DNA of 64,000 nt, taken from assembly GCA_964626845.1 (NCBI GenBank), contig CAZVGR010000014.1:12570-76569 (forward strand). Reading direction: 5' to 3'. Source of the DNA: an uncultured Anaerolinea sp. Its GTDB lineage: Bacteria; Chloroflexota; Anaerolineae; JAAEKA01. Made by a program: the position numbers and the translations under genes. Of this stretch, positions 42,087-64,000 are shown piece by piece. The notes under the pieces are model-generated. The model ran no database searches, was not told where the DNA came from, and was given only the letters and a program-made list of their open reading frames with translations. How positions within the stretch are numbered: position 1 is the stretch's first letter; the number at the start of each line of letters is the position of its first letter.

Positions 42087-45000
42087 TTACTGCACCAGAA
42101 TGGTCGTCTGCTGCGTGTCCAGCGTGCTATCCCCCGAGACGATAAAGGCGATGGTTTGCAGCCCCGCGCTAACAGCCTGCACGCGGGCGGTGACTGCAAC
42201 GACCTCATTGGCCGGTATCACCAGCGACTGAGCGCTCAAATCAACCCGCAGCCCAGCGCTGGTTTGCGCGGCCAGCCGCACAGCTTGCGCCTGCCGGCTG
42301 TAGTTGAAGATCTGCACGCGCACATCGACCTGCTCGCCGACCATCATCTGCCCTGGCACGTTGGACGACAAGAACACAGGCTGGAAAACCACCAACCGCG
42401 CCACAGCGCTGCCCAGCCGGCCGCTGCGATCCACGGCCAGCGCCGTGATGCGCCAGGTTGTGATGGCATCGCCGGTAGGGATCGAGACGCTCAGCCGGCC
42501 GCCTGGGTCGGTGATCGCTTCAGGGTTCCAGTAGAGCGTCTGGGGGAAGCGCTCCCGGATGATGGGCAGCGATTCCACAGGTATCTCAGCGGGCGCAACT
42601 GCCGCCTTGGCGGCAGCAGGAGCGGCCAGAGCGTCGGCGGCTGGCGCTTCGACCGTAGCTGGCGGCTGCGGGGTCGCAGTCGCTGCGGGCTGCGGGGTCG
42701 CAGTCGCTGCGGGCTGCGGGGTGGGCGTAGCTGGCGGCTGCGCCGTTGGCTCCGGCTGCGGCGTCGCAGTGGGTTCAGCGGTCGGCGATGCCGTCGGCTC
42801 TGGCGATGCCGTCGGCTCTGGCGATGCCGTCGGCGTTGCCTCCGGCGTCCAGGTGAACGTGGGGCTGGGCGTCGGGCTGGGCGTTGCCGTGGCGGTTGGG
42901 GTGCCAGCGGCATCTGCGCTCTGCGCGCGCACGGCTGCGTCCACTTCAGCAGGGGTCAGTGTCGGGGTCACGGTCGGCGTGATGGTAATCGTCGCCGTGG
43001 CCGTGATCGTCGCTGTGGGCGTGATCGTCGCCGTCTCAGACAGCACAACCGTGGCCGTAATCGGCGCCTGGGCAGCGAAAACCGAGGTCTCAGCCTCGAC
43101 CGTGCCGCTCATCGAACGCAGAGCGTCTGGCTCGATCGTCGGCGTCGCCAGGTCGGGTTCAGTTGTCGCCGTTGCCTCTGGCGCGACTTCAGCCACAACG
43201 GTGGCCTCAGGTTCGGCAGGCTGAAGCATAAACCCAGACGCTTCCTGCGCGCTGACTGCCTCAGTGGGGCCAGGTTCACCCTGCCCACCAAGTGTTTCTT
43301 CCACCATTGGCTGCGCCTCTGCGGCCAGCTCAGCCGGCGCGGCGGCAGATTCAAAGACGGGCGGCGGGGCAGGAGCAGCAGCCGGCGCGGCCATATCACC
43401 GGCGGCCGGCTGCGCTGCCAACCCCTGGCTCTGGGGAGCTGCCGGCGGCGCGGCGCAGGCCGTCAACAGACCGTTGCCCAGCCCATAGACCATTGGCGCA
43501 GTGACCCGCTGAATCAGCTCTGCGCCGCGGAAATCGACCGTGTTGAGGGCCGCCGTCAGCGGCATAACCAGCAAGGCCAGCAGCAGCATGCCCAGCCCGG
43601 CCCGCTTCTGGCCCTCCATGCGCAAGCCCCAGCCGAAGAGCAGCATAGTCGCCAGCAGCACGCCAAAGCTCAACGCCAGCGCCACCAGCCAGGCCGGCGA
43701 CAGCGTGGCGCCCTGGCCGGCTGCAAAGGCCAACAGCGCCAACAACGCCATATAGGCCAGCAGCAACAGGGCCACGTATTGCAGGCGCTGATCACGCTGC
43801 CGCCAGCCGTAGACCAGAAGGGCGATCAGCAGAGCCAGCCATAGCCCGCCAGCCGCAGCCAGCAGCAGCCAGTCACCCTGGCTCGACAGGTTGTCCAGCA
43901 GCATTTGGGTCAGGGCGATCAGCCCTGCGCCCAGCACCGCCAACACCAGCAGGGTCAGCAACAGACGGCCCAGCGCCCCGCCCAGCACACCGCTGCGCCG
44001 CAGTCCTAGCAGCACAATGGCGGCAGCCAGCAGCGCAGCCAGCACCAGCGCCAGGCTGAGGCCGCGGCTGATCTGGCTGAAGGCCTGCTGGCGGGCAGCG
44101 TTGGACGCGCTGTCGCTGGCCTGATCGATGGACTGGGCCGACAGGCTATACTGCCGGCCAGCATAGTTGGCCCAACTGGCCTGGGCTGTCAATTGCTGCG
44201 CCGCCCGTAGCTGCCTGAGCTCCTCGGCCGCAACATCGTCGCCCTCTGGCAGAGCTATACCGCTGTCTGACAGCTCCTGATCCAGCAAGAAGAAGGCGCG
44301 GGTAAAGCCGGGTTGATAAGCGCGCTGGCCGTAAACTGCCTCGTTGACCACCGCCAGCCCGACAGCCGTCTGCACGCCCTCTCCATCGGCCGTCGTCCTG
44401 ACGCTAAGCTCGGCTTGCTGGCCGGGGCGATACTCTACCCGGTCGGTGGCAAGCTGCACCTGCACGTCTTCGGGCGCATCCACCAAAGCCACGCGGGTGT
44501 CCCGCAGGACGTTGTTCTCGCCCGTAAGCTGGTAGGCGTTCAGCTCCAGCGCGCCGACCAACGCCGGCGTCAGGTCGATAGCCAGCGTCGCCTTGCCGTC
44601 CTGGATCAGCGCCGACTGGGTGAGCAGCGTCTGGCCGCCCTTGATCACGTCCACGTAGACCGCCGGGCCGCTGCCGGTGGCGATGGCCTCCACAGCCAGG
44701 GTGTCGCCCACCTGATACAGCGCGCGATCGGTGCGCAGCAGCAGCGTTTCCTGAGCTTCGTCCAGGGGCAGGACCAGCGAGGTCGAGCCGGTGCGGCCGG
44801 CCGCGTCCGTGGCGGTGACGACGACCGCGCGGTCGCCTTCTGCGCCGGCCCGCGGGGTATAGCGCACCTGGGCCACGCCGAAGTCGTTGGTGTCTTCCGT
44901 GATCAGCGCGCCGGAGCCGATCTGCACCTGGAGCGCTGTGGGGGCCGGCCGGCCGTCAGGATAGCTGGTCAGCACGTAGAGGATGTTCTCGACGCCCGCG

Positions 45001-46379
45001 CGCAGCGTGCCATCCTCCGGCGTCACGTCGATCAGGATCGGCTCGCGCGCCAGGGTCAGCGCCTGCCAGCCAAACTGGGCATCGCCGGTAACGTCGACCA
45101 CGGTGGCCTCCAGCGCCAAATCGATGACGCCGCCAGGGCCAAACGCGTCCTCTGCCAGGTCAGGCAACTGGAACTGGAAGGCGAACAGGCCGTCAGCGTT
45201 GCTCTCCCCCAGCAATTCCTCAGTAAACAGCAACACTTCGCCGGCAGTGGGGTCTTGCTCCAGGCGTATGCCCACCAGGCGCAAGGCGACCTGGCCGCCG
45301 GCCACGGGCTTGCCGAAGAAATAGCTGGCGCTAACCTGGCCGGTCAGCAGGTCGCCAGGCAGGTAGTACGGGGCGTCGGTCTTCACATCGACCAGGAAGG
45401 TGGGCAGCGGCGCCTGGCCCAGGGTCACGCTCAGCTCCGACACCGTATCGCCCAGCGTGGCGCGCAGTTGGTACTGGCCTAACGGGGTGTCGACGGCCAG
45501 GGGCAGGCTGGTGGCGGCGATGCCAAACTCCGACGACATCTGCTGCTGCGACAGGATCTGCCGGCCGGCCGCGTCGAAGACCTCGAAGCGCGTGACCGCG
45601 CCAGAGGCCGGGGTCTCGTCCACCGTGCCCAGGGCCAGCGTGCGCAGATGGATGGTCTCACCCGGCTGGTAAACCGGCTTGTCGCTGCTCAGCAGCAGGC
45701 GGTAAGAGCGCTGCAACAGCACGGGCGCGACGACTTCGTCCTGGCCCAGATCGCTCTGGGTGGACACGATCAACTCGGCGTTGCCCTCCCAGTCGGCCGG
45801 CACGTCGAACTGCACCGGCGCCGAGCCGGTGGCGTCGGTGCGGCCCTGGAAGACGGTGCGGGCCAGGCCGGCCTGGCGCATCTGCACGGCCACGCTGGCA
45901 TCGGCGACTGGTTGGTTATCGGCTGGGTTATTGACCACCACGCGCAGCGCGGCCTGGCTGCCGGGCGCCAGGGTGTCCTGGCCCAGCACCAGGGTCTGCT
46001 GGGCGCTGTTCTGCGCCGGGAGCCGGGTTGCGCTGAGCACCATGCCAAAGAAGAAAACGGCCACCAGCGGGATAGCTGCCTTGCTCAGGGGGCGCAACCC
46101 GGCCAGCAGCGCGGCCCACAGGCCGGCCAGGCTGCTCTCTTTACGGTTGCGTTGAGCCAGCAAAGCGCTGCGCATGCGCGCTTCCGCGGCCGCAGACAGA
46201 TGGACCGAGTTATAGACCACCGGCACAACTGTGCTCAGGCCCACCCGCAGCCGCTGGAGGTCCACCAGCTCAGCCGCGCAGGCCGGGCAGTCAGCGATAT
46301 GCGCCTCGGCGGCCTGCATCTCCGCCGGGCTCAGCTCACCATCCAGGTAAGCCAGCAGGTCTAGTTCGATGTGAGTCAT
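42087..46379 (-). CDS. Giant anti-sigma factor: N-terminal zf-HC2 anti-sigma domain, TM, alpha-2-macroglobulin-like (MG) domains, internal multi-TM block, Thr/Pro/Ala-rich linker, A2M-like C-terminal domain
   Basis: 1430 aa. 'HIADCPACAAEL' zinc-finger anti-sigma motif. Repeated 'Y(Q/R)PGE(T/Q)' MG-domain signatures. Directly downstream of the ECF sigma gene. Confidence 0.7.
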   Translation of the reverse strand: MTHIELDLLAYLDGELSPAEMQAAEAHIADCPACAAELVDLQRLRVGLSTVVPVVYNSVHLSAAAEARMRSALLAQRNRKESSLAGLWAALLAGLRPLSKAAIPLVAVFFFGMVLSATRLPAQNSAQQTLVLGQDTLAPGSQAALRVVVNNPADNQPVADASVAVQMRQAGLARTVFQGRTDATGSAPVQFDVPADWEGNAELIVSTQSDLGQDEVVAPVLLQRSYRLLLSSDKPVYQPGETIHLRTLALGTVDETPASGAVTRFEVFDAAGRQILSQQQMSSEFGIAATSLPLAVDTPLGQYQLRATLGDTVSELSVTLGQAPLPTFLVDVKTDAPYYLPGDLLTGQVSASYFFGKPVAGGQVALRLVGIRLEQDPTAGEVLLFTEELLGESNADGLFAFQFQLPDLAEDAFGPGGVIDLALEATVVDVTGDAQFGWQALTLAREPILIDVTPEDGTLRAGVENILYVLTSYPDGRPAPTALQVQIGSGALITEDTNDFGVAQVRYTPRAGAEGDRAVVVTATDAAGRTGSTSLVLPLDEAQETLLLRTDRALYQVGDTLAVEAIATGSGPAVYVDVIKGGQTLLTQSALIQDGKATLAIDLTPALVGALELNAYQLTGENNVLRDTRVALVDAPEDVQVQLATDRVEYRPGQQAELSVRTTADGEGVQTAVGLAVVNEAVYGQRAYQPGFTRAFFLLDQELSDSGIALPEGDDVAAEELRQLRAAQQLTAQASWANYAGRQYSLSAQSIDQASDSASNAARQQAFSQISRGLSLALVLAALLAAAIVLLGLRRSGVLGGALGRLLLTLLVLAVLGAGLIALTQMLLDNLSSQGDWLLLAAAGGLWLALLIALLVYGWRQRDQRLQYVALLLLAYMALLALLAFAAGQGATLSPAWLVALALSFGVLLATMLLFGWGLRMEGQKRAGLGMLLLALLVMPLTAALNTVDFRGAELIQRVTAPMVYGLGNGLLTACAAPPAAPQSQGLAAQPAAGDMAAPAAAPAPPPVFESAAAPAELAAEAQPMVEETLGGQGEPGPTEAVSAQEASGFMLQPAEPEATVVAEVAPEATATTEPDLATPTIEPDALRSMSGTVEAETSVFAAQAPITATVVLSETATITPTATITATATITITPTVTPTLTPAEVDAAVRAQSADAAGTPTATATPSPTPSPTFTWTPEATPTASPEPTASPEPTASPTAEPTATPQPEPTAQPPATPTPQPAATATPQPAATATPQPPATVEAPAADALAAPAAAKAAVAPAEIPVESLPIIRERFPQTLYWNPEAITDPGGRLSVSIPTGDAITTWRITALAVDRSGRLGSAVARLVVFQPVFLSSNVPGQMMVGEQVDVRVQIFNYSRQAQAVRLAAQTSAGLRVDLSAQSLVIPANEVVAVTARVQAVSAGLQTIAFIVSGDSTLDTQQTTILVQ
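42620..42900 (-). repeat. In-frame tandem DNA repeats (18-bp units, e.g. ggcgatgccgtcggctct x3) encoding the TASPEP/TPTATA linker
   Basis: Direct inspection. Confidence 0.7.
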
Positions 46380-46419
46380 AAATGAATGTATCGCTCGGGC
46401 CGGTCTCCGACCGAGCCCG

Positions 46420-47136
46420 TCAGCGCAGTGTCAGCAAAAGCATCATCATCTGCGCTGCCGAACGACGCCGGCCCAGGTCGGGTGCTTGCGTTGTCAGAAT
46501 CTCCTGTAACTTCTTGTGCGCATTGAAGAGCCGCGACTTGACGGTGCCGATGTTGATCTGCAAGGCGTCTGCGATCTCCTCATACGAAAACTCCTGGCCG
46601 TAGCGCATCAGCACCACTTCACGATGCACGTCGCTCAACTGGTTGACCGCGGCCCACAGGCGGACTTTGTCCTCCTGACGCAGGGCCAGGTCCTCTGGAT
46701 TGCCAGCCACGTGGCCGGTCATCGAGCCGTCAGACGGCTCAGCCTCGGCCGGCATGCGCTCCAGGCGCTCTTCCATCTCGTCCCAGTCGGCCGAGGGCAG
46801 GCGTTTTTTGCGCAGCCGCGTCTTGCAGCGGTTGACCGTCACCCGGTAGACCCAGGTCTCGAAGCGGGCCGCGCCGTCCACGTCATAGCTTCTCAGGCCG
46901 CGCAGCACGTCCATGAAAGTCTCCTGCGTGGCCTCTTCGGCGTCGTCGCTGTTGCGCAACGTCATGTAGGCCACGCGGTACACATAGTCCTTGTAGCGCT
47001 CGAACAGCGCGTCAAAGGCCGCTGGCTGGCCGGCCTGGTGACGCCTGATCAATTCCTCGGTGGACACACCGTAGGTTGGGGTCCTGCTGCGCCCAGCCGG
47101 GACTGCGCTGGCAGGGTTCGCTACATCGGAAGGCAC
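46420..47136 (-). CDS. RNA polymerase ECF-type sigma-70 factor
   Basis: Region 2 (FDALFERYKDYVYRVAYMTL...ETFM) and region 4 (FSYEEIADALQINIGTVKSRL). GTG start with AAGGA SD. Confidence 0.8.
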   Translation of the reverse strand: MPSDVANPASAVPAGRSRTPTYGVSTEELIRRHQAGQPAAFDALFERYKDYVYRVAYMTLRNSDDAEEATQETFMDVLRGLRSYDVDGAARFETWVYRVTVNRCKTRLRKKRLPSADWDEMEERLERMPAEAEPSDGSMTGHVAGNPEDLALRQEDKVRLWAAVNQLSDVHREVVLMRYGQEFSYEEIADALQINIGTVKSRLFNAHKKLQEILTTQAPDLGRRRSAAQMMMLLLTLR

Positions 47137-47302
47137 GTCGTATTCCTTGACGCCTGCGGGTTACATGCAGGGCGAGTGGGATTTGTTCGCAGGAGGAGAC
47201 GGCCTGCGAAGATGGGATGGTTCCCGTTGTTGGCTTGCAGTGTAGCCGGGGAGATAGAAGGAGTCAAACTGCGGGGAATGGGTTTGCCGGGGATGAGAGT
47301 GA

Positions 47303-47338
47303 GAGATGACATTTCTTCCGCAGAAATGTCATCTCTGA
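47303..47338. repeat. Palindrome AGAGATGACATTTCT-tccgcag-AGAAATGTCATCTCT (GAGATGACATTTCT family)
   Basis: Direct inspection. Lies between the dinB-like operon end and the sigma gene. Confidence 0.8.
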
Positions 47339-47356: not shown

Positions 47357-47845
47357 TTAACGCTCTAGCTCATCGAAGTACGCCCAACTATCCAGCTCCG
47401 GCGGCTCGATGCCCAGTTGCGTCAGAATGGCCATGACCTGGGCGCGGTGCTCGGTGGCATGGTTGATGGCCTGGGTGAGCAGGATTGTCTTGGGCACGTC
47501 GCGCAGCACGCCGTCCCAGTCGATCTCTACCACGTCGCCGGCCTGCACCTGGGGCGCCCAGTCGACCAGGCCGGCGCCGCTGGCGCGCGTCCATGCGAGC
47601 ATCTCGGCCAGGGTCAGCGGCGGCGCATCGGCGGGATGGCGGTACGGCCGGCCGGTGCTGATGCGGGAGAAATAGGAGCGCTCGGCGCTGACGATATGCT
47701 GCAAGGTGTCGCGGATCGAGCCGAACGTGCCCAGCAGCGTGGCGTCCAGTTGTTCGTCGCTCAGCCCGGCGCACAGCTCGATGAGGCGCTCGTTGGCCCA
47801 CAGGTTGTGACGGAAGAGGGTGGTGAGGGTGTCGGTAGGGTTCAT
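47357..47845 (-). CDS. DinB/YfiT-like (DinB_2) family protein
   Basis: Start ATG 47845 (MNPTDT) after GGAG. The ORF extension to 48346 is spurious. His-rich DinB-fold motifs. Confidence 0.65.
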   Translation of the reverse strand: MNPTDTLTTLFRHNLWANERLIELCAGLSDEQLDATLLGTFGSIRDTLQHIVSAERSYFSRISTGRPYRHPADAPPLTLAEMLAWTRASGAGLVDWAPQVQAGDVVEIDWDGVLRDVPKTILLTQAINHATEHRAQVMAILTQLGIEPPELDSWAYFDELER

Positions 47846-48420
47846 GGGAGCACTCCGTTGGTGGCAGCGAAATCGACTTCCTCGGCCGTGGCGATGCGGT
47901 TGGCGCGGCCAGGGTAGCTTAGCCAGGTCATGGCAACGTTGAGGTCGCGGATGATGCTCTCCGCCTCGATGCGCATGCCGTCGTCGAACTCCATGGCGCC
48001 GGTGGTGTGGGCGTCCTTGAGGAGGGTCAGGTCGTAGCCGCGATCCAGCGCGCCGTAGGCTGTGGCGCGGATGCACCAGTTGGTGGCGGCGCCGGCCAGC
48101 ACCACGTGGGTTGCGCTGAGCCGGGCCAGCTCCTCTTCCAGGGTGGTCTGCTCGAACGAGGAGTTGAAGCGCTTGTGGATCACCGGCTCGTCCGCGGCCG
48201 GCGTGAGTTCCGGCGCCCACTGCCACGCCTCGCTGCCGTACACCAACTCCTCGTCCGAATGCTGCACCCAGATCACGGGCGCGCCACGAAGGCGCGCCCG
48301 CTGGACGGCGCGCGCCACATTCCTGACGATGCGGGGGGCATCCCACGCCTCGCTCACCACGCCGACCTGCACATCGACCACCAGCAGGACTGTCTTGTTG
48401 CCTGCGCGTATTGTTGCCAT
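47842..48420 (-). CDS. Isochorismatase family (cysteine hydrolase) protein
   Basis: Start ATG 48420 (MATIRAG) after GGAG. ATGA overlap with the downstream gene. Confidence 0.7.
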   Translation of the reverse strand: MATIRAGNKTVLLVVDVQVGVVSEAWDAPRIVRNVARAVQRARLRGAPVIWVQHSDEELVYGSEAWQWAPELTPAADEPVIHKRFNSSFEQTTLEEELARLSATHVVLAGAATNWCIRATAYGALDRGYDLTLLKDAHTTGAMEFDDGMRIEAESIIRDLNVAMTWLSYPGRANRIATAEEVDFAATNGVLP

Positions 48421-48510
48421 GCCATTATCTCCAATCGCCGTCAGCCAATGGTACGGCGCGATCATGGGTCTCGGCCCATCTGTCGAAAAGCTGAGTGCGC
48501 TCTGTTTGGT

Positions 48511-54410: not shown

Positions 54411-57400
54411 CTACCGGATTGACAACCACGCATCCCACAGAGTCGCCAGCGCCGGCGGCCGCACGGTCAGCACCGCACCAGTGAGGGGCAGGAAGACGGG
54501 CGCGCGGTTCCAGGCCGTGTCGTCCTGCACGCCGTTGCTGTAGGCTGTCCCGTTGGCGCGGCCGGCCGCGGCAGCCCGGCCGCGCTGCAAGTCGGCCTCG
54601 CGGCGCGGCAGCAGGCGATAGCCGCTCTCGGTCTGGCTGACCACGCCCACCACCGTCCACACCTCGCCGATGTTGACGTAGGGCCGGCGGATGCCGGTCG
54701 CAGGCCGGATGGTGATGCGCGCCTCGCCGCTGCCGTCGTCCAGATAGAGGGTGGTTTCCTTCCAGAAGCCGGTGATGGGGCCGCTGAGCTGCACCAGCCG
54801 GCCCTCGTTGGCCTCGGCCACCTCGCCCGTGCGGATAGGCAGCGGCGCAGGCGGCGCGGCCGGCTGCATGGTCTTGATGTCGTCGATGCGCACCAGGCTG
54901 ATCTGCCGCTCCTCGTAGAAGGTGCCCAGCCGGCCGTTGACTCGCACCCACTGCCCCTCGCTGAGCGGCGGCCACTGGGCCGAACGCAGGAAGACCCGCA
55001 TGCCGCCCGTGGCATCCTGGATGTAGATCTCCTGGTCGTCAAAGACGTTGGGCAGCGCCGTCACCTGGCCCTCCAGCGTCAGCCGCGTGCCGTCGGGCAG
55101 GCTGCGGGCGTGGGCGATGGTCGCCAGGTCGAAGTTGAAGCGGTCGTAGGGCTGTCCACTGCCCGACCCGCCGCCGCTACTGCTTCCACCGCCGCCGCCC
55201 GATCCGCCGCCGCTGTTGGGGTCGGCCGCGTTGGCCTGGCCTGGCGTTTCGATGCAGTCGCGGGACCACTCGCCCACGCCATCGGGCAGTCGGCACCAGG
55301 ATTGGTCATAGCCGGAGAAGACATTGTAGCTCATGCTGTCGGCCAGACTATTGTCCGGGTAGAGCAAGCGCACCTGTTCGCTGCTGGCGTCCAGCGCCAA
55401 GCCGCTCTGAGCGCGGTAGATCACCAGATAGCCCTGGGCCGGCAGCACAAGACCAGAGGGCAGGATGTAGGTCCGGTCTGGCTCATGGCTGGCTGGCTGG
55501 CCATCAGCCAGCTTCCAACCGGCCAGATCGACTGGCTCCTCGCCCAGATTTGTCAACTCGATCCACTCGTCCAGATAGCTTGGGACGCCGTTGCCGTCCC
55601 AGTCCACGTTCTGCGGCGAGGGCAGCACCTCGTTCAGCCGCACGGTGGTGGCCACCGGCGTCGGCGTCAGTTGCGGCGTCGCGGTGGGCGTCGGCGTGGG
55701 CGTGCCGCCGGGCGTGTTGCTGCCGCCGGGCGTGGGCGGGTAGCTGCGCGTCCACTCTGCGCCGCCGTCCACCGTCTTACTGGCGGCCTGATCGTCGCGG
55801 CTGCTGCTGTACTGGGTCTCCTCCACCACCAGGCCATCGGGCCGCAGCAGCCGCACCCAGTCGCCGTCGTTGTTCAGGGCGATGCCGGTCTGGCTGCGGA
55901 AGAAGAGCAGGAAGCCGCGGGCCGGGATGGTCGCGCCGGGCGGCAGGGTGTAGGGCGCTGAGCCGCCGCTCGCCACGTCGTCCAACTGCCAGCCGCTCAG
56001 ATCGACCGCGAAGTCGTTGGCGTTGTATAGCTCGATGTACTCATCGTCCTGGTTGGCTGCGCCGTCGCCGTTCCAATCGGAGGCGGGGTCGGGCATGTAC
56101 TCGTTCAGGCCGACGCCATCAGGATAGACGCCGGGCGTAGCCGTCAGCGTGGCAGTCGGTGTTGGCGTCGGGGTCGCGGCCTGGTTGGACGCGCCGGGCG
56201 AGGGCGGGTAGGCCATCGTCCACTGGTCGCCGCCGTCCACCGTCTTGCTGTAACTGACGTCGGCCGGCGCGGCCGTGTAGCTGTGGTTCTCCACCTCCAC
56301 GCCGTCGGGCCGCAGCAGCCGCACGCTGTCGCCGCCGCTGTTGTTGAGGGCGATGGCCGTGTCCCGGCTCCACAGGGTTAGGAAGCCTTGCGCCTCGATC
56401 ACCGCGCCGGCCGGCAAGGTGTAGGGCGACGACCCACCGCCCGCCACATCGTCCACCTGCCAACCGCTTAAGTCGACGGCGAAGTCGTTGGCGTTGTAGA
56501 GCTCGATGTACTCGTCGTTGGCGTCGCCCACGATGCCATCGCCGTTCCAGTCGGCCTCGGGGTTGGGCATGAACTCGTTGAGCACAATGCCATCAGGGTA
56601 GACCACGGGCGTACCGGTGGGCGTGGCGGTCGGGGTAGGCGTGGCCGTAGGGGTGTTGGCAGCCTGGTTGGACGCGCCGGGCGAGGGTGGGTAGCTCATC
56701 GTCCATTCGTCGCCGCCATCTGTGGTCTTGCTGTAGCTGACGTCGGCCGGCGCGGCTGTGTAGGGGTGGTTCTCCACCTCCACACCGTCGGGCCGCAGCA
56801 GCCGCACGCTGTCGCCGCCGCTGTTGTTGAGGGCGATGTTCGTGTCGCGGCTCCAGAACACCAGGAAACCTTGCGCCTCGATCACCGCGCCAGCCGGCAA
56901 GGTATAGGGGGACGAGCCGCCGCCGGCGACGTCGTCTACCTGCCAGCCGCTCAGGTCGACGGCAAAATCGTTGGCGTTGTAGAGCTCAATGTACTCGTCG
57001 TTGGCGTCGCCCCGGATGCCGTCTTCGTTCCAGTCAGCCTCGGGATTGGGCATGAACTCGTTGAGCACGATGCCTTCGGGATAGTCTACCGGCAGCGGGG
57101 TTGGCGTGGGCGTCGGCGTGCCGGCCGGCTGGTTGGATGCGCCAGGCGAGGGCGGATAGTCCGTCGTCCACTGGTCGCCGCCGTCCACGGTCTTGCTGTA
57201 GCTCACATCGGCCGGCGCGGCCGTGTAGCTGTGGCTCTCCACCTCCACACCGTCGGGGCGCAGCAAGCGCACGCTGTCGCCGCCGCTGTTGTTGAGAGCG
57301 ATGTTTGTGTCCCGGCTCCAGAACACCAGGAAGCCTTGCGCCTCGATCACCGCGCCAGCAGGCAAGGTATAGGGGGACGAGCCGCCGTTGGCGATGTCAT

Positions 57401-60173
57401 CCAACCGCCAGCCGCTCAGGTTGACGGGGAAGTCGTTGGCGTTGTACAGCTCGATGTACTCGTCGTTGGCGTCGCCAATGATGCCATCTTCGTTCCAGTC
57501 GGCCTCCGGGTTGGGCATGAACTCGTTGAGCACGATGCCGTCAGGGTAGACCACGGGCGTGCCGGTGGGCGTGGCCGTCGGGGTAGGCGCGGCCGTGGGA
57601 GTGTTGGCGGGCCGGTTGGGCGCGCCGGGCGAAGGCGGATAACTGCGCGTCCACTGGCTACCGCCGTCCACAGTCTTGCTGTAAGCCTCATCGTCGCGGC
57701 TGCTGGGATATTCGACCTGCTCGACGACTGCCCCATCAGGCCGCAGCAGGCGCACCCAGTCGCCGTCGTTGTTGAGCGCAATGCCGCTCTGGCTGCGAAA
57801 AACCAGCAGAAAGCCGCGCGCCTCAATGATTGTGCCGGTGGGCAGGATGTAAGGCGGGCTGCCGCTGGGCGTGAAGGGCGAGCGAAGCTGGCCAAAGCCA
57901 TCGTCTACGTCGTCCAGGCGCCAGCCGCTGAGATCGACGGCAAAGTCGTTGGCGTTGTACAGCTCGATATATTCGTCGTTCAGATCAGCCGTGCCGTTGC
58001 CGTCCCAATCGGAGGCGGGGTCGGGCATGAATTCGTTGAGGCTGATGCCATCAGGATAGACGCCGGGGGTGGCTGTTGGCGTCGCAGTCGGCGTTGGGGC
58101 CGGTTGGTTGGATGCGCCAGGCGAGGGCGGGTGGGTCATCGTCCACTGGTCGCCGCCATCCTCTGTTTTGCTGTAGGCCACGTCAGCCGGCGCGGCGGTG
58201 TAGCTGTGGCTCTCCACCTCCACGCCGTCGGGCGTCAGCAGACGCGCTGCATCGCCGCCGCTGTTGTTGAGGGCGATGCGCGTGTCCCGGCTCCAGAACA
58301 CCAGGAAGCCCTGCGCTTCGATCACTGTGCCGGCCGGCAGGGTGTAGGGGGACGAGCCGCCGCTGGCGATGTCGTCCAGTTGCCAGCCGCTCAGGTCCAC
58401 AGCGAAGTCGTTGGCGTTGTACAGCTCGATGTACTCGTCGTTAGTGTCCCCCAGGATGCCGTCGTCGTTCCAGTCGGCCTCCGGGTTAGGCATAAACTCG
58501 TTCAGGCTGACGCCTTCCGGGTAGGGCGTAGGCGAGGCGGCGGGCGTCGTTGCAGATGTGGGCGATGGCGTCGCCGTTGGCGTGGGCGTAGGTGTGGCCG
58601 TTGGCGTAATCGTGGGCGTGGCTGTCCAGGCCGGCGGCTGGTTGGATGCGCCAGGCGACGGCGGGTAGGCCATGGTCCATTCTGCGCCGCCGTCCACGGT
58701 CTTACTGTAACTCACGTCAGCCGGCGCAGCCGTGTAGAAGTGGCTTTCGACCTCCACCCCGTCCGGCCGCAGCAGCCGCGCCCAGTCGCCGCCGCTGTTG
58801 TTGAGCGCGATGCCGGTGTCCCGGCTCCACAGCACCAGATGGGACTGCGACTCGATCCAGGCGCCGGCCGGCAGGGTGTAGGGCGCTGATCCGCCGTTAG
58901 CCACGTCGTCCAGCATCCACCCACCGATGTCCACGGCAAAGTCGTTGGCGTTGTAGATCTCGATGTACTCGTCGTTGCCGTCGCCCAGAATGCCGTCGTT
59001 GTTCCAGTCGGCCTCCGGATTGGGCATGAACTCGTTCAGGCTGAGGCCGGTGGGATAGACGGCCGGGGTGGCCGTGTGGGTGGGGGTTGGGGGCGGCGCG
59101 GGTTGGTTGGAAGCGCCCGGCGAGGGCGGGTAGGTCATGGTCCAATCGCTGCCGCCATCCACCGTTTTGCTGTAGGCCACGTCAGCCGGCGCAGCGGTGT
59201 AGCTGTAGCTCTCGACCTCAACACCGTCGGGCCGCAGCAGACGCACCATGTCGCCGCCGCTGTTGTTGAGCGCAATGCGAGTATCCCGGCTCCACAGCGC
59301 CAGGAAGCCATGCGCCTGGATCGTCGTGCCAGCAGGCAAGGTGTAAGGCGACGAGCCGCCGTTGGGTATGTCATCCACGCGCCAGCCGCCCAAATCAACG
59401 GCAAAATCGTTGGGATTATACAGCTCGATGTACTCGTCGTTGGCGTCGCCGAAAATGCCGTCGTCGTTCCAGTCGGCCTCGGGGTTGGGCATGAACTCGT
59501 TGAGGTGGATGACAAGCGGCGCGGGGGTGGGCGAAGGAGTCGCAGTGGGCGTGGGCGTGGCGGTGGCTGGCCCTGGCGGCTGATTGGCGGCGCCTGGCGA
59601 GGGTGGGTAATCAGCCGTCCACTGGTTGCCGCCATCGACTGTTTTGCTGAAGGCCCCATCCGCTTGGGTCTGGGTGTAGCTGAAGCTCTCAACAGGGACA
59701 TCGTCCGGCGTCAACAGGCGCACCGCGCCGCTGCTGTCGTCCAACTCAAGGCCTGTTTGGACACCCCACAGCACCAAATGACGCTGCGCGCGCAGCACTG
59801 TACCAGGAGGCAGCGCATAGGGCGGCAAGCCGCTGCTCTCGCCAGCGTCCAGCTTCCACCCGCTGATGTCCACGTCGAAAGGGTTGGCGTTATAAAGCTC
59901 GATGTATTCGTCGTTGTTGCCGCCCGTCACCCCATCGCCGTTCCAGTCATACACCGGCTGTGGCATTAACTCGTTGAGGACAACGCCGCCAGGATAGCTG
60001 CTCTGAGCAGCCGCAGGCAGCACCCCTGCGCCACGCGCGATCTGTGGGCCGAGAACGAGCAGCAGAACACTGCCGGCTGTCAGCAGGCCGGCGATCCAGG
60101 AACGATACGATGCACGACAAGACGACATGATCCCACCTCCACAAAGCTGTCTGGCAGGCCGATCCCACGACAC
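54411..60173 (-). CDS. Secreted giant protein with ten tandem lamin-tail-domain (LTD) repeats, Thr/Pro linkers, a Gly/Ser-rich linker and a C-terminal OB-fold-like domain
   Basis: 1920 aa. Signal peptide. Ten copies of 'LNEFMPNPEADWN.DG..GD.NDEYIELYNANDFAVDLSGW.LDD...GGSSPYTLPAG' (LTD/PF00932-like), each followed by a PTPTATP linker. ~450-bp near-identical DNA periodicity. Confidence 0.8.
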   Translation of the reverse strand: MSWDRPARQLCGGGIMSSCRASYRSWIAGLLTAGSVLLLVLGPQIARGAGVLPAAAQSSYPGGVVLNELMPQPVYDWNGDGVTGGNNDEYIELYNANPFDVDISGWKLDAGESSGLPPYALPPGTVLRAQRHLVLWGVQTGLELDDSSGAVRLLTPDDVPVESFSYTQTQADGAFSKTVDGGNQWTADYPPSPGAANQPPGPATATPTPTATPSPTPAPLVIHLNEFMPNPEADWNDDGIFGDANDEYIELYNPNDFAVDLGGWRVDDIPNGGSSPYTLPAGTTIQAHGFLALWSRDTRIALNNSGGDMVRLLRPDGVEVESYSYTAAPADVAYSKTVDGGSDWTMTYPPSPGASNQPAPPPTPTHTATPAVYPTGLSLNEFMPNPEADWNNDGILGDGNDEYIEIYNANDFAVDIGGWMLDDVANGGSAPYTLPAGAWIESQSHLVLWSRDTGIALNNSGGDWARLLRPDGVEVESHFYTAAPADVSYSKTVDGGAEWTMAYPPSPGASNQPPAWTATPTITPTATPTPTPTATPSPTSATTPAASPTPYPEGVSLNEFMPNPEADWNDDGILGDTNDEYIELYNANDFAVDLSGWQLDDIASGGSSPYTLPAGTVIEAQGFLVFWSRDTRIALNNSGGDAARLLTPDGVEVESHSYTAAPADVAYSKTEDGGDQWTMTHPPSPGASNQPAPTPTATPTATPGVYPDGISLNEFMPDPASDWDGNGTADLNDEYIELYNANDFAVDLSGWRLDDVDDGFGQLRSPFTPSGSPPYILPTGTIIEARGFLLVFRSQSGIALNNDGDWVRLLRPDGAVVEQVEYPSSRDDEAYSKTVDGGSQWTRSYPPSPGAPNRPANTPTAAPTPTATPTGTPVVYPDGIVLNEFMPNPEADWNEDGIIGDANDEYIELYNANDFPVNLSGWRLDDIANGGSSPYTLPAGAVIEAQGFLVFWSRDTNIALNNSGGDSVRLLRPDGVEVESHSYTAAPADVSYSKTVDGGDQWTTDYPPSPGASNQPAGTPTPTPTPLPVDYPEGIVLNEFMPNPEADWNEDGIRGDANDEYIELYNANDFAVDLSGWQVDDVAGGGSSPYTLPAGAVIEAQGFLVFWSRDTNIALNNSGGDSVRLLRPDGVEVENHPYTAAPADVSYSKTTDGGDEWTMSYPPSPGASNQAANTPTATPTPTATPTGTPVVYPDGIVLNEFMPNPEADWNGDGIVGDANDEYIELYNANDFAVDLSGWQVDDVAGGGSSPYTLPAGAVIEAQGFLTLWSRDTAIALNNSGGDSVRLLRPDGVEVENHSYTAAPADVSYSKTVDGGDQWTMAYPPSPGASNQAATPTPTPTATLTATPGVYPDGVGLNEYMPDPASDWNGDGAANQDDEYIELYNANDFAVDLSGWQLDDVASGGSAPYTLPPGATIPARGFLLFFRSQTGIALNNDGDWVRLLRPDGLVVEETQYSSSRDDQAASKTVDGGAEWTRSYPPTPGGSNTPGGTPTPTPTATPQLTPTPVATTVRLNEVLPSPQNVDWDGNGVPSYLDEWIELTNLGEEPVDLAGWKLADGQPASHEPDRTYILPSGLVLPAQGYLVIYRAQSGLALDASSEQVRLLYPDNSLADSMSYNVFSGYDQSWCRLPDGVGEWSRDCIETPGQANAADPNSGGGSGGGGGSSSGGGSGSGQPYDRFNFDLATIAHARSLPDGTRLTLEGQVTALPNVFDDQEIYIQDATGGMRVFLRSAQWPPLSEGQWVRVNGRLGTFYEERQISLVRIDDIKTMQPAAPPAPLPIRTGEVAEANEGRLVQLSGPITGFWKETTLYLDDGSGEARITIRPATGIRRPYVNIGEVWTVVGVVSQTESGYRLLPRREADLQRGRAAAAGRANGTAYSNGVQDDTAWNRAPVFLPLTGAVLTVRPPALATLWDAWLSIR

Positions 60174-61855: not shown

Positions 61856-63139
61856 TCAGTTGCTGCGCCGCTCGATGTGCGCGCCCAGGCCGAGCAGCTT
61901 CTTCTCCAACTGCTCATAGCCGCGATCGATCTGGCCGATGTTGCCGATCTCGCTGACCCCTTCGGCGCACAGCGCGGCGATGACCAGCGCCATGCCAGCG
62001 CGAATGTCGGGGCTGACCACGGTGCTGCCGCGCAGCGTGGCCGGCCCGACCACCACGGCGCGATGCGGGTCGCAGAGGATGATCTGCGCGCCCATGGTGA
62101 TCAACTTGTCGGTGAAGAACAGGCGACTCTCGAACATCTTGTCGTGGATCAGCACCGTGCCCTGGGCTTGGGTGGCCGTCACCAGGGCGATGCTCAACAC
62201 GTCGGCCGGGAAGGCCGGCCAGGGCGCGTTGTCGATGGTCGGCACCGCGCCGCCCACGTCGGGCTGAATGGCCAGATGCTGCTCATCCTCTACCACCAGG
62301 GTGTCGCCCTCGTAGTGCATGCGCACCCCCAGGCGCTGGCGAAAGACCATATCGACCATGCGCAGGTGCTCACGGTTGACGCCGCGAATGCGCACCTCGC
62401 CGCGCGTCACCGCGCCGAGGCCGATGTAGCTGCCGATCTCGATGTGGTCGGGGCAGATGGTCCACTGGCCGCCGTGCAGCTTGGGCACGCCCTCGACCAC
62501 CAGGATGTTGCTGCCGATGCCGCTGATCTTGCCGCCCATGCCGTTGATGCACAGGCACAGGTCCTGCACGTGCGGCTCCGACGCTGCGTTGCGGATGATG
62601 GTCGTCCCCTGAGCCAGGGCTGCGGCCATGACGGCGTTCTCGGTGGCGGTGACGCTGGCCTCGTCCAACAGGATATCGGCGCCATGCAGCCGGCTGGCTT
62701 GCAGCGCGAAGCCGCCGTTGTGGCTGGCCTCGGCGCCCATGGCCTCCAGGGCCAGCAGGTGGGTGTCGATGCGCCGCCGGCCGATCTTGTCGCCGCCCGG
62801 CAGGGGCAGATGGATCGAGCCGGCGCGCGCGATCATGGGTCCGATCAGGGTGATCGAGCCGCGGGTACGGCGGAACAGGTCGGGATCGGGGGTGGTGTGG
62901 CGCAAGGTGTGGGCGTGCAGGGTCAGCGTGTGCTGATCCTGCCACGAGGCGGCGACGCCCAGCTCGACCAGCAGCTCGATCTGGGTTTCGATGTCGCCGA
63001 TGCGCGGCACGTTGTGCAGGGTGAGAGGCTCGTCGGTGAGCAAACAGGCTGCCAGCAGCGGCAGAGCGGCGTTCTTGTTGCCGCTGGGGGTCACCTCGCC
63101 GTTGAGGGAATGGCCCCCTTCGATGATAAATTGTTCCAT
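61856..63139 (-). CDS. murA: UDP-N-acetylglucosamine 1-carboxyvinyltransferase
   Basis: 427 aa. Full-length MurA including active-site region '[15 protein letters not shown]'. Confidence 0.9.
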
Positions 63140-63268: not shown

Positions 63269-64000
63269 TTACACGTCACCTGCCATTCCATGCGGAGCCG
63301 CAACGATAGGTTCACCGGCCGCCACGCCCAGCCGCGCAGCGGCGCTGCCATCGCGCACGGCCACCTCCAGCGTGCCATCGCTGCTGACCAGCGACAGAAG
63401 CTGGCCCGGCGCGGCCTCGGCGTAGGTCAGGCTGGGGCCGACGACTTGCTGGCCGGCGATGCGCACGGTCCAGAACCGGCCGGCCAGCCAATCGCCAGGG
63501 ATGTTGCTGACCAGGTTGCCGAAGCGGTCGACGTGGACGATCTGGCCGCGCAGGCTGCCGCCCAGCTCGCGCTGCGGGGGCTGCACGGTGAAGCGAACAG
63601 GGTCGTCGATGGGCGCGCCCAGGGCCTGGAGCGGGGTTCCCAGCGCCAGATGGGCCGCCACCGGCGCGAAGATGTCGCGGCCGTGGAAGGTGCGGCTGAC
63701 GTGGGGCAGCCAGTAGGCCGGGTTGTCCAGATGGACGCAGGCCGCCGGCTGGCCGGCCGGCAGGGCATAGGTGAACACGCCGTTGTCGGGGCCGACCAGG
63801 GTATAGTTGCTTACCTGCGCCGCCATCGGCCGGCGCGCGCTGCCCACCCCAGGATCGACAATGGCGACGTGAACCGTGCCCGGCGGAAAGTAGGGCAGGG
63901 CTGTGGCCAGCACGTAGGCCGCCTCGCGCACGTTCTGCGGGGCAATCTGGTGGGTGATGTCGACCACCGTGGCCTGCGGCGCGATGCTCAGGAGCACGCC
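63269..64000 (-). CDS. SAM hydroxide adenosyltransferase / SAM-dependent halogenase family (DUF62) protein, 5' end beyond window
   Basis: C-terminal 242 aa with 'VDRFGNLVSNI' motif. ORF open to the window edge. Confidence 0.7.
   Translation of the reverse strand, partial: GVLLSIAPQATVVDITHQIAPQNVREAAYVLATALPYFPPGTVHVAIVDPGVGSARRPMAAQVSNYTLVGPDNGVFTYALPAGQPAACVHLDNPAYWLPHVSRTFHGRDIFAPVAAHLALGTPLQALGAPIDDPVRFTVQPPQRELGGSLRGQIVHVDRFGNLVSNIPGDWLAGRFWTVRIAGQQVVGPSLTYAEAAPGQLLSLVSSDGTLEVAVRDGSAAARLGVAAGEPIVAAPHGMAGDV

Follow-up and report, generated by a model that had tools for sequence, protein, structure and literature searches.

The 64-kb stretch of DNA analyzed here (hereafter the window) comes from an environmental, Anaerolineae-like (Chloroflexota) bacterium and carries a two-gene module composed of an extracytoplasmic function (ECF) sigma factor and a 1430-amino acid (aa) anti-sigma factor, the ectodomain of which is related to alpha-2-macroglobulin (A2M) and is joined to the membrane by seven transmembrane (TM) helices. 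Both genes are on the minus strand, with the sigma gene first and a gap of 40 nucleotides (nt) between them, and the coordinates and strand that an initial annotation of this DNA had assigned to the pair are exact (table 1). The sigma gene has a GTG start codon with an AAGGAA ribosome-binding site 7 nt 5' of it, and the alignment of the sigma protein with its relatives begins at residue 1. The protein matches Sigma70_r2 (63 bits) and Sigma70_r4_2 (53.8 bits) in Pfam and TIGR02937 (sigma70-ECF) in NCBIfam, the latter with 114.9 bits against a cut-off of 42.9; there is no match to region 3 or region 1.1, leaving only regions 2 and 4, as in ECF (group 4) sigma factors. Family hidden Markov models (HMMs) identify no second ECF sigma factor in the window.

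The 1430-aa gene is real and not a chance open reading frame (ORF), because full-length homologs with 51–81% identity exist in many metagenomes and metagenome-assembled genomes (MAGs). The nearest relative by identity (L008, 88%) is encoded on a truncated genome fragment. An exact-sequence look-up of the protein returned no record, and the PADLOC defense models gave no match to it. Its start codon has no obvious ribosome-binding site. Immediately ahead of this start codon, and overlapping the stop codon of the sigma gene, is a stable hairpin (46392–46425, minus strand; -22.7 kcal/mol, z -3.3) that may tune the ratio of sigma to anti-sigma factor; it is not kept in the related locus L001, where the gap between the two genes is 8 nt.

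Table 1. Features of the locus and of selected related loci; coordinates refer to the window unless a related locus (L) is named, and residue numbers to the 1430-aa protein.
Feature	Coordinates	Strand	Extent	Basis or remark
ECF sigma gene	46420..47136	-	238 aa	Pfam and NCBIfam matches
Anti-sigma/7-TM A2M-like gene	42087..46379	-	1430 aa plus stop codon	ORF, Pfam, homologs
Predicted cytoplasmic class-I anti-sigma domain	46101..46379	-	aa 1–93	zf-HC2, zinc motif
TM1, predicted inside to outside	46032..46088	-	aa 98–116	Hydropathy; loop charges fit the positive-inside rule
Predicted extracytoplasmic MG1 to first half of MG6, including bait-region domain	44310..46022	-	aa 120–690	Pfam, AlphaFold2, Foldseek
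Helical stalk between MG6a and membrane	44064..44309	-	aa 691–772	Alignment; helices in both AlphaFold2 models
Six-TM block, family-specific, at bait-region insertion point	43545..44063	-	aa 773–945	Hydropathy
Conserved post-TM7 segment, ending in lipobox-like L-T-A-C975	43455..43544	-	aa 946–975	Alignment
Disordered Ala/Pro/Thr/Glu-rich loop, bait position	42570..43454	-	aa 976–1270	Composition, repeats, homolog model
Second half of MG6 plus MG7, end of protein	42090..42569	-	aa 1271–1430	Pfam A2M, 70 bits
Candidate ECF-type autoregulatory promoter GAAC-N17-CATGTAA	47161..47188	-		Ends 25 nt before sigma GTG
Candidate housekeeping-type promoter TTGACT-N17-TACACT	47239..47267	-		Kept in 7/8 closest loci
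Terminator-like hairpin between upstream DinB-family gene and sigma operon	47302..47336	-		-22.2 kcal/mol, z-score -5.3
DUF4349 lipoprotein genes in related loci	L004 11637–12700; L017 11383–12407; L020 9664–10673; L029 9560–10575; L032 10909–11967			3' of short-class anti-sigma genes
vWF_A/VWA lipoprotein gene in related locus	L015 11183–12188			3' of short-class anti-sigma gene; GAAC-N17-CATG[TG]AA upstream

An Anti-Sigma Domain Coupled to an Adjacent Sigma Factor

The N-terminal domain of the 1430-aa protein matches zf-HC2 in Pfam at aa 8–35 (35.1 bits, cut-off 22.2) and contains the zinc motif H27-x3-C31-x2-C34 together with a conserved H3. Among 97 aligned family members, 75 carry the HxxxCxxC signature, and of proteins with solved structures the anti-sigma factors DdvA (E 2e-4) and RslA come closest to the domain. 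Four helices precede TM1 in an AlphaFold2 (AF2) model of P0089, a 1158-aa homolog (39% identical) with the same architecture and a shorter loop that was modeled from the 97-sequence alignment. An ECF sigma factor is encoded directly upstream in 33/33 loci whose protein has the anti-sigma domain, and a sigma gene is adjacent in only 2 of the 49 full-length loci whose protein lacks the domain by our own HMM, the N-termini of both being divergent. A sigma/anti-sigma relationship is well supported by this co-occurrence, and binding of the sigma factor by the domain is predicted. The initial annotation had paired the two genes in this way and had placed a zf-HC2 anti-sigma domain and a TM helix at the N-terminus; with a genuine ECF sigma factor and a class-I (zinc-type) anti-sigma domain that both score above curated cut-offs, and TM1 directly after the domain, these assignments hold.

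The conservation of the H-x3-C-x2-C motif fits an RsrA-type cytoplasmic redox switch, in which oxidation of the zinc cysteine pair would release the sigma factor and the A2M-like part would be unrelated, as does the DinB-family gene (a weak match to mycothiol S-transferase) that lies just upstream of the operon here and in L001. We consider this explanation very improbable. Most zinc-type anti-sigma domains are not redox sensors, and the N-termini of the homologs P0236 and P0249, judged by eye, look anti-sigma-like and appear to lack the cysteine pair. A strong hairpin lies between the DinB gene and the operon, other loci lack this gene, and a redox switch would leave the strict coupling of the domain to the 7-TM A2M body unexplained.

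The Ectodomain Is an A2M-Type Module Lacking a Thioester

Beyond TM1, the protein has Pfam matches to MG2 (aa 228–307, 65.2 bits), MG3 (aa 325–370, 23.6 bits), A2M_BRD (aa 548–683, 58.9 bits), and A2M (PF00207; aa 1281–1369, 70 bits), as well as a match to bMG3 (aa 143–207) that is below the cut-off. A phmmer search of PDB sequences gives matches to A2M, C3, C5, CD109, and TEP1 and aligns aa 1272–1375 (IIRERFPQTLYWNPE...) to residues 703–804 of human A2M (VRKYFPETWIWD...) and residues 733–841 of C3, which are the strands right after the A2M bait region and the C3 anaphylatoxin (ANA) domain. The P0089 model (mean pLDDT 84.7, pTM 0.67) contains all-beta domains at residues 124–651, with pLDDT mostly above 90, and confident beta domains from the loop to the C-terminus. 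Foldseek comparison of this model with the PDB retrieves CD109, C3, C4, C5, A2ML1, A2M, TEP1, ECAM, and Salmonella A2M (E 6e-31 to 7e-24), with the bacterial entries 5a42, 4u48, and 4ziq at about 1e-24 to 1e-25. Pfam, phmmer, and the Foldseek search with the homolog model together indicate that the ectodomain is a true A2M/TEP-superfamily module and not a set of generic Ig repeats, in agreement with the initial annotation, which had recognized MG/A2M-like domains and had named generic Ig/Big domains as the outcome that would speak against its proposal.

Several parts of a classical macroglobulin are missing. There is no Pfam match to TED or A2M_comp in the 1430-aa protein and no CxEQ thioester motif, the only three cysteines being C31, C34, and C975. 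The CUB and receptor-binding (MG8) domains are also absent; in the alignment, the tail after MG7 is 0 aa long, compared with ~550 aa in TED-bearing relatives. An HMM built from the TED regions of relatives finds no TED gene across the 64-kb window. With no CUB domain, TED, CxEQ motif, or receptor domain, covalent protease trapping by this protein is therefore impossible. The initial annotation has to be revised accordingly in its label of a protease-trapping-like module, since the CUB, TED, thioester, and receptor domain are all missing, and in its A2M C-terminal-like domain, which is not a receptor-binding domain: the protein finishes with the second half of MG6 and then MG7. The search for CxEQ that it recommended has a negative answer for the 1430-aa protein.

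A Six-Helix Block and a Disordered Loop Are Inserted at the Bait Position

A2M_BRD ends at aa 683 and the sequence from aa 1272 onward matches post-bait strands, so that aa ~690–1270 constitute one large insertion inside MG6. The insertion site in MG6 is the classical site of proteolytic activation in the superfamily, being occupied by the bait region in A2M and the anaphylatoxin domain in C3. The stalk at the start of the insertion opens with an invariant PGF..FLL motif. It leads to exactly six hydropathy-predicted helices after TM1 (aa 773–791, 806–824, 838–856, 869–887, 898–916, and 927–945), matching the internal block of about six TM helices in the initial annotation. The Thr/Pro/Ala linker described there is likewise present as the loop of 295 residues, of which 78 are Ala, 54 Pro, and 49 Thr. 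The stalk and the six TM segments are helical in the P0089 model, and the equivalent loop (residues 941–1005) has pLDDT below 50.

Averaged over 97 family members, the number of Lys plus Arg residues per loop is 2.0–3.5 in the three predicted cytoplasmic loops versus 0.2–0.7 in the two short outer loops. The topology supported by these charges would have the N-terminal anti-sigma domain inside and MG1–6 outside, with the six helices making three in-and-out passages and the loop, MG7, and the C-terminus again outside.

The segment following TM7 ends in a lipobox-like motif, [LMFV][TMSA][GA]C, which in the 1430-aa protein is LTAC975 (aa 972–975; 43455–43466, minus strand) and is located ~29 residues after TM7, where disorder starts. 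The cysteine is found in 80 of 97 family members, including 75/75 of those bearing an anti-sigma domain, and the preceding position is Gly or Ala in 95 of 97. C975, the sole cysteine outside the zinc motif, may be an internal lipidation site or a signal-peptidase-II-type cleavage site; if it is lipidated or cleaved, the product would be a two-chain protein split where C3 splits into its beta and alpha chains.

The coding sequence of the loop contains perfect or near-perfect tandem repeats of 24 and 18 nt (42655–42742, 42784–42834, and 42988–43034). From these repeats the loop appears to evolve by recent repeat expansion, and its length across the family ranges from 53 to 358 aa.

Distribution and Architectures of the Family

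A word-indexed search identifies 504 homologs of the 1430-aa protein, with identities of up to 81% over the full length. The relative placement of TM1 and the six-TM block is shared by essentially all of the 120 homologs listed, the few exceptions being fragments or cases of borderline hydropathy. We also searched a profile of the stalk and six-TM block against 1.84 billion representative proteins (clusters at 50% identity; E up to 0.001). Among the 191 proteins matched, every full-length one is ~1000–1850 aa long with the block in its middle third, and the rest are fragment-like; because all full-length matches are of that kind, the six-TM block is specific to this A2M lineage. Database names for family proteins are generic ("alpha-2-macroglobulin family protein," "zf-HC2 domain-containing protein," or "anti-sigma factor RsiW").

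Relatives are encoded in at least 559 genomes, counting one genome per species, a figure that is an upper bound for the family in that ordinary single-TM A2Ms were also caught. The best 79 loci are mostly from Anaerolineae, Caldilineales, Thermoflexales, and Ardenticatenales, with a minority from Planctomycetota, Poribacteria, Acidobacteriota, Bacillota, and Vulcanimicrobiota; the closest genomes are those of uncultured Anaerolineae (88% and 83% identity). The 7-TM A2M family is thus widespread, with Chloroflexota as its main phylum and further members in Planctomycetota and elsewhere.

Four architectures can be distinguished. The first, to which the 1430-aa protein belongs, has an anti-sigma domain and seven TM helices and no TED, and comprises the clade of this protein (the query clade), with loops of 245–358 aa, and a "short" clade with loops of 80–140 aa. 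The second combines the anti-sigma domain and seven TM helices with CUB, TED, and MG8 domains, including CxEQ. Proteins of the third and fourth architectures have seven TM helices and no anti-sigma domain, with a TED in cis in the third and a separate gene for a TED and receptor domain 19–52 bp downstream in the fourth. Split macroglobulins of this last type are encoded in L006 (8001–12881; confirmed by Pfam), L019, L021, L023, L024, L026, L027, L030, L031, and others, the downstream gene encoding ~462–481 aa. We rejected the possibility that the 1430-aa protein is itself a split A2M with its TED in trans: split members have a 60-aa tail after MG7 as well as the downstream TED gene, and it has neither.

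A Conserved Promoter Motif and Candidate Regulon

The candidate promoter GAAC-N17-CATGTAA precedes the sigma gene, exactly and with fixed spacing, in 22 of the 33 related loci that have such a gene, in DNA that is otherwise unalignable. The CATGTAA/CATGAAA element is present in 24 of the 33 related loci in addition to the window, and these represent all three anti-sigma classes. The motif has a single occurrence without mismatches in the window, and across 1.0 Mb of oriented loci a relaxed version occurs 40 times on the gene strand versus once on the opposite strand. Conservation, fixed spacing, and strand bias together are the hallmark of an ECF promoter that is autoregulated and specific to this group. 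A short inverted repeat, CCTG ... CAGG, surrounds CATGTAA in the window (47161–47175, minus strand) and in many related loci and could be an operator or a structure at the transcript 5' end. Another promoter candidate, GGAAC-N18-CGTC (47198–47224), was discarded; only the nearest relatives retain it, and its chance expectation in the window is 0.49.

Copies of the motif also precede other genes in related loci. Genes for DUF4349 lipoproteins lie just 3' of a short-class anti-sigma gene in five distinct loci and one duplicate (L004/L005, L017, L020, L029, and L032), each preceded by GAAC-N17-CATG[TG]AA, and the vWA lipoprotein gene of L015 has the same arrangement (table 1). These DUF4349 and vWA lipoprotein genes are likely regulon members in the relatives; the window contains no homolog of either. 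An exact CATGTAA motif (L031, 5798–5825) is located upstream of an A2M plus TED operon without an anti-sigma domain, and L031 shares its MAG with L014, a sigma/anti-sigma locus. Other 7-TM A2M genes that lack the anti-sigma domain and an adjoining sigma gene have ECF-type motifs 18–196 nt upstream, namely GAAC-N17-CGTCTAA in L039, L043, L045, L051, and L054 and an ECF-type motif in L019; in total, 10 of the 49 loci without the anti-sigma domain have a motif copy with at most two mismatches, versus about 1.5 expected.

The sole other copy in the window, with one mismatch (CATGGAA variant; 63286–63313, minus strand), is 147 nt upstream of murA (61856–63139). It is kept in three close relatives and lost or changed in others, and its conservation is uninformative because the site is still within coding sequence, at the 3' end of the gene before murA. 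Repeated GTTACG/CGTAAC-like elements are a further feature of the murA leader.

The promoters of members without an anti-sigma domain bear on an explanation in which the protein is an effector first: a membrane-anchored shield or decoy against proteases whose anti-sigma domain would report its own loss, such that degradation frees the sigma factor and more protein is made. Such homeostasis would agree with an autoregulated operon that encodes the anti-sigma factor itself, with the existence of members lacking the anti-sigma domain, which are presumably effectors, and with the ECF-type promoters (GAAC-N17-CGTCTAA) of many of them. However, the loss of effector parts (TED, CUB, and receptor-binding domain) in the query clade is a better fit to a specialized sensor, and we regard this explanation as improbable. 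In practice it overlaps with the cleavage-sensing mechanism that we favor below, as proteolysis would still be the input.

Proposed Mechanism

What we propose with confidence is the construction of the sensor: a thioester-less A2M-type body that is fixed in the membrane both at TM1 and at the bait site and belongs to an autoregulated sigma/anti-sigma pair. As to what it senses, we favor proteolysis of the loop at the bait position, a reading that we hold tentatively and put a little short of an even chance. The cytoplasmic zinc-type domain would hold the sigma factor, with TM1 leading outward to a ring of six MG domains. MG6 is interrupted by the stalk, the six TM helices, the cysteine motif, and the 295-aa loop, after which the chain completes MG6 and forms MG7. 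Exposed in this way, the loop could serve as bait for extracellular endopeptidases. In a published account of A2M bait cleavage, the cut bait retracts from the channel of the MG ring and a conformational change follows (PMC9352918). Cutting of the loop might release a change of this A2M type; with one end of the bait anchored in the six-TM bundle, which is probably packed with TM1, the change would be passed to the anti-sigma domain or would destabilize it, and the sigma factor would be freed. Free sigma factor would then transcribe its own operon from GAAC-N17-CATGTAA along with envelope genes; in relatives, these targets would be the genes for DUF4349 and vWA lipoproteins and, in at least one case, an operon for an A2M effector with a thioester.

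We infer proteolysis as the input because of the position of the loop, its disorder, and the relatives that combine an anti-sigma domain with a reactive-looking thioester domain, and we infer the route of transmission from the six-TM bundle: as the proximal end of the "bait," it could plausibly relay a change to TM1 and the cytoplasmic domain. Circumstantial support for a protease sensor thus comes from the bait position, the TED and CxEQ that accompany the anti-sigma domain in sister clades, and the motif before the thioester-A2M operon of L031. The initial annotation had suggested capture of an external protease or host factor as the signal; a host factor is unlikely because the organism is an environmental Anaerolineae-like bacterium.

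Several observations weigh against sensing by loop cleavage. The TED, CUB, and receptor domains are missing from the protein. Pro/Thr/Ala-rich linkers are often protease-resistant spacers, and the loop holds only 1 Lys and 2 Arg together with recent perfect tandem repeats, features that are typical of resistant linkers. The classical route, in which removal of the ectodomain is followed by the action of a site-2 protease, is inapplicable unchanged, because RseA/RsiW-type factors are single-pass proteins with a removable ectodomain and this protein has seven TM helices, with MG1–6 tethered at both ends after a cut in the loop. The neighborhoods of the locus and its relatives contain no conserved protease gene, and in the query clade no regulon member beyond the operon was identified within 6–8 kb.

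Some of the same observations suit a sensor of the envelope that does not depend on proteolysis: the MG ring would bind a partner protein or some component of the cell wall or surface, envelope damage would free the sigma factor, and the loop would be no more than a flexible or wall-spanning tether or an entropic shield. The absence of the thioester, a loop of the Pro/Thr-linker type with recent repeat expansion, the candidate regulon of envelope lipoproteins (DUF4349 and vWA) in relatives, and the weak motif copy upstream of murA are all compatible with such a role, and bacterial A2Ms are known to act in membrane complexes (PMC5764988), ECAM being linked to PBP1c and MagD to MagB. However, the loop is connected to MG6 at both ends, so that it would be of no use as a reaching spacer, and its location is precisely that of the bait. 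The reactive-looking CxEQ TED that relatives retain alongside this anti-sigma domain points to protease chemistry, and the murA site, as noted, is within coding sequence. We consider an envelope sensor of this kind unlikely, if worth keeping in mind, and cleavage of the bait-position loop remains the input that we prefer.

Neighboring Genes in the Window

DinB-family and isochorismatase-family genes are directly upstream of the sigma operon (47357–48465, minus strand); the pair is also present in L001 and is not found in more distant loci. At 54411–60173 (minus strand), an ORF encodes a 1920-aa protein in which about ten lamin-tail domains (LTD, 565 bits) are combined with an OB-fold-like region at the C-terminus, and a similar LTD gene is near L001.

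Comparison with Known Systems and Implications

The two recognized types of bacterial A2M are soluble proteins, ECAM having a lipid anchor and MagD being tethered by MagB (PMC5764988). With type I A2Ms (ECAM/YfhM of Escherichia coli and SaA2M of Salmonella) the 1430-aa protein shares the MG ring, the bait-region domain, MG7, and outward-facing anchoring in the cytoplasmic membrane. Unlike ECAM, an N-terminally lipidated soluble body with CUB, TED (CxEQ), and MG8 domains whose gene is paired with pbpC, it has seven TM helices (six of them at the bait site), no CUB, TED, or MG8 domain, an N-terminal anti-sigma domain, and a sigma factor as neighbor. It shows no N-terminal lipoprotein signal, thioester, or pbpC neighbor, the adjacent genes being the sigma gene and a convergent Mg-chelatase-like gene. 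Type II A2Ms (MagD of Pseudomonas aeruginosa and YfaS of E. coli) have in common with it the lack of a thioester and association with the inner membrane (PMC5764988). MagD, however, keeps a TED-like domain and the bait region and is a soluble protein, tethered via MagB, from a six-gene operon, whereas the 1430-aa protein is itself polytopic and part of a sigma/anti-sigma pair; it has neither a TED without CxEQ nor a six-gene mag/yfa operon.

Eukaryotic A2M, C3, and CD109 are the best sequence and fold matches and share the insertion site in MG6, which is the bait site in A2M and the anaphylatoxin site in C3. They differ from the 1430-aa protein in that they have no membrane helices at this site (the glycosylphosphatidylinositol anchor of CD109 aside), possess a TED, and have no signaling link to a transcription factor. 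Among class-I ZAS (zinc-type) anti-sigma factors, RslA of Mycobacterium tuberculosis, DdvA of Myxococcus (with CHAT), and RsgI of Clostridium (with carbohydrate-binding modules) likewise combine an N-terminal H-x3-C-x2-C domain, a TM helix, an extracytoplasmic sensor, and an autoregulated operon. These are single-pass proteins, and none has an A2M-type ectodomain or six membrane re-entries.

The literature searched, including a 2026 review of A2M evolution, contains no description of anti-sigma factors together with macroglobulins or of a polytopic A2M, and the main text of the ECF reclassification paper, as far as that part goes, mentions neither macroglobulin, A2M, nor Chloroflexi. We regard the 1430-aa protein as an ECF anti-sigma factor whose sensor module is new, from a family that looks like a third architectural type among bacterial A2Ms. 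In a broader form of this proposal, the polytopic "7-TM macroglobulins" would be a third class of bacterial A2M/TEP proteins in which the bait loop is mounted on a six-helix bundle, cutting of the bait by an endopeptidase would activate the anti-sigma switch and thereby envelope defenses that include thioester-A2M effectors, and the cysteine at the start of the bait would perhaps be lipidated or cleaved. We offer this broader form as speculation that is rather unlikely to be right in every part.

Bacterial A2Ms are currently described, in two types, as soluble, periplasmic, passive protease traps. If a membrane-integral A2M is indeed wired to a transcription factor, the principle of bait cleavage and conformational change would have been reused for signaling and would give the cell a generic means of detecting any foreign protease. 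Two genes and a defined promoter make up a testable system for how a large extracytoplasmic conformational change crosses the membrane, and a protease-gated sigma/anti-sigma pair with an exchangeable bait loop is a possible sensor for synthetic biology. The family enlarges the sensor repertoire of ECF anti-sigma factors in the poorly studied Chloroflexota and Planctomycetota, and, if the broader proposal is true, it would be a bacterial counterpart of the complement-style principle in which proteolytic activation leads to a response.

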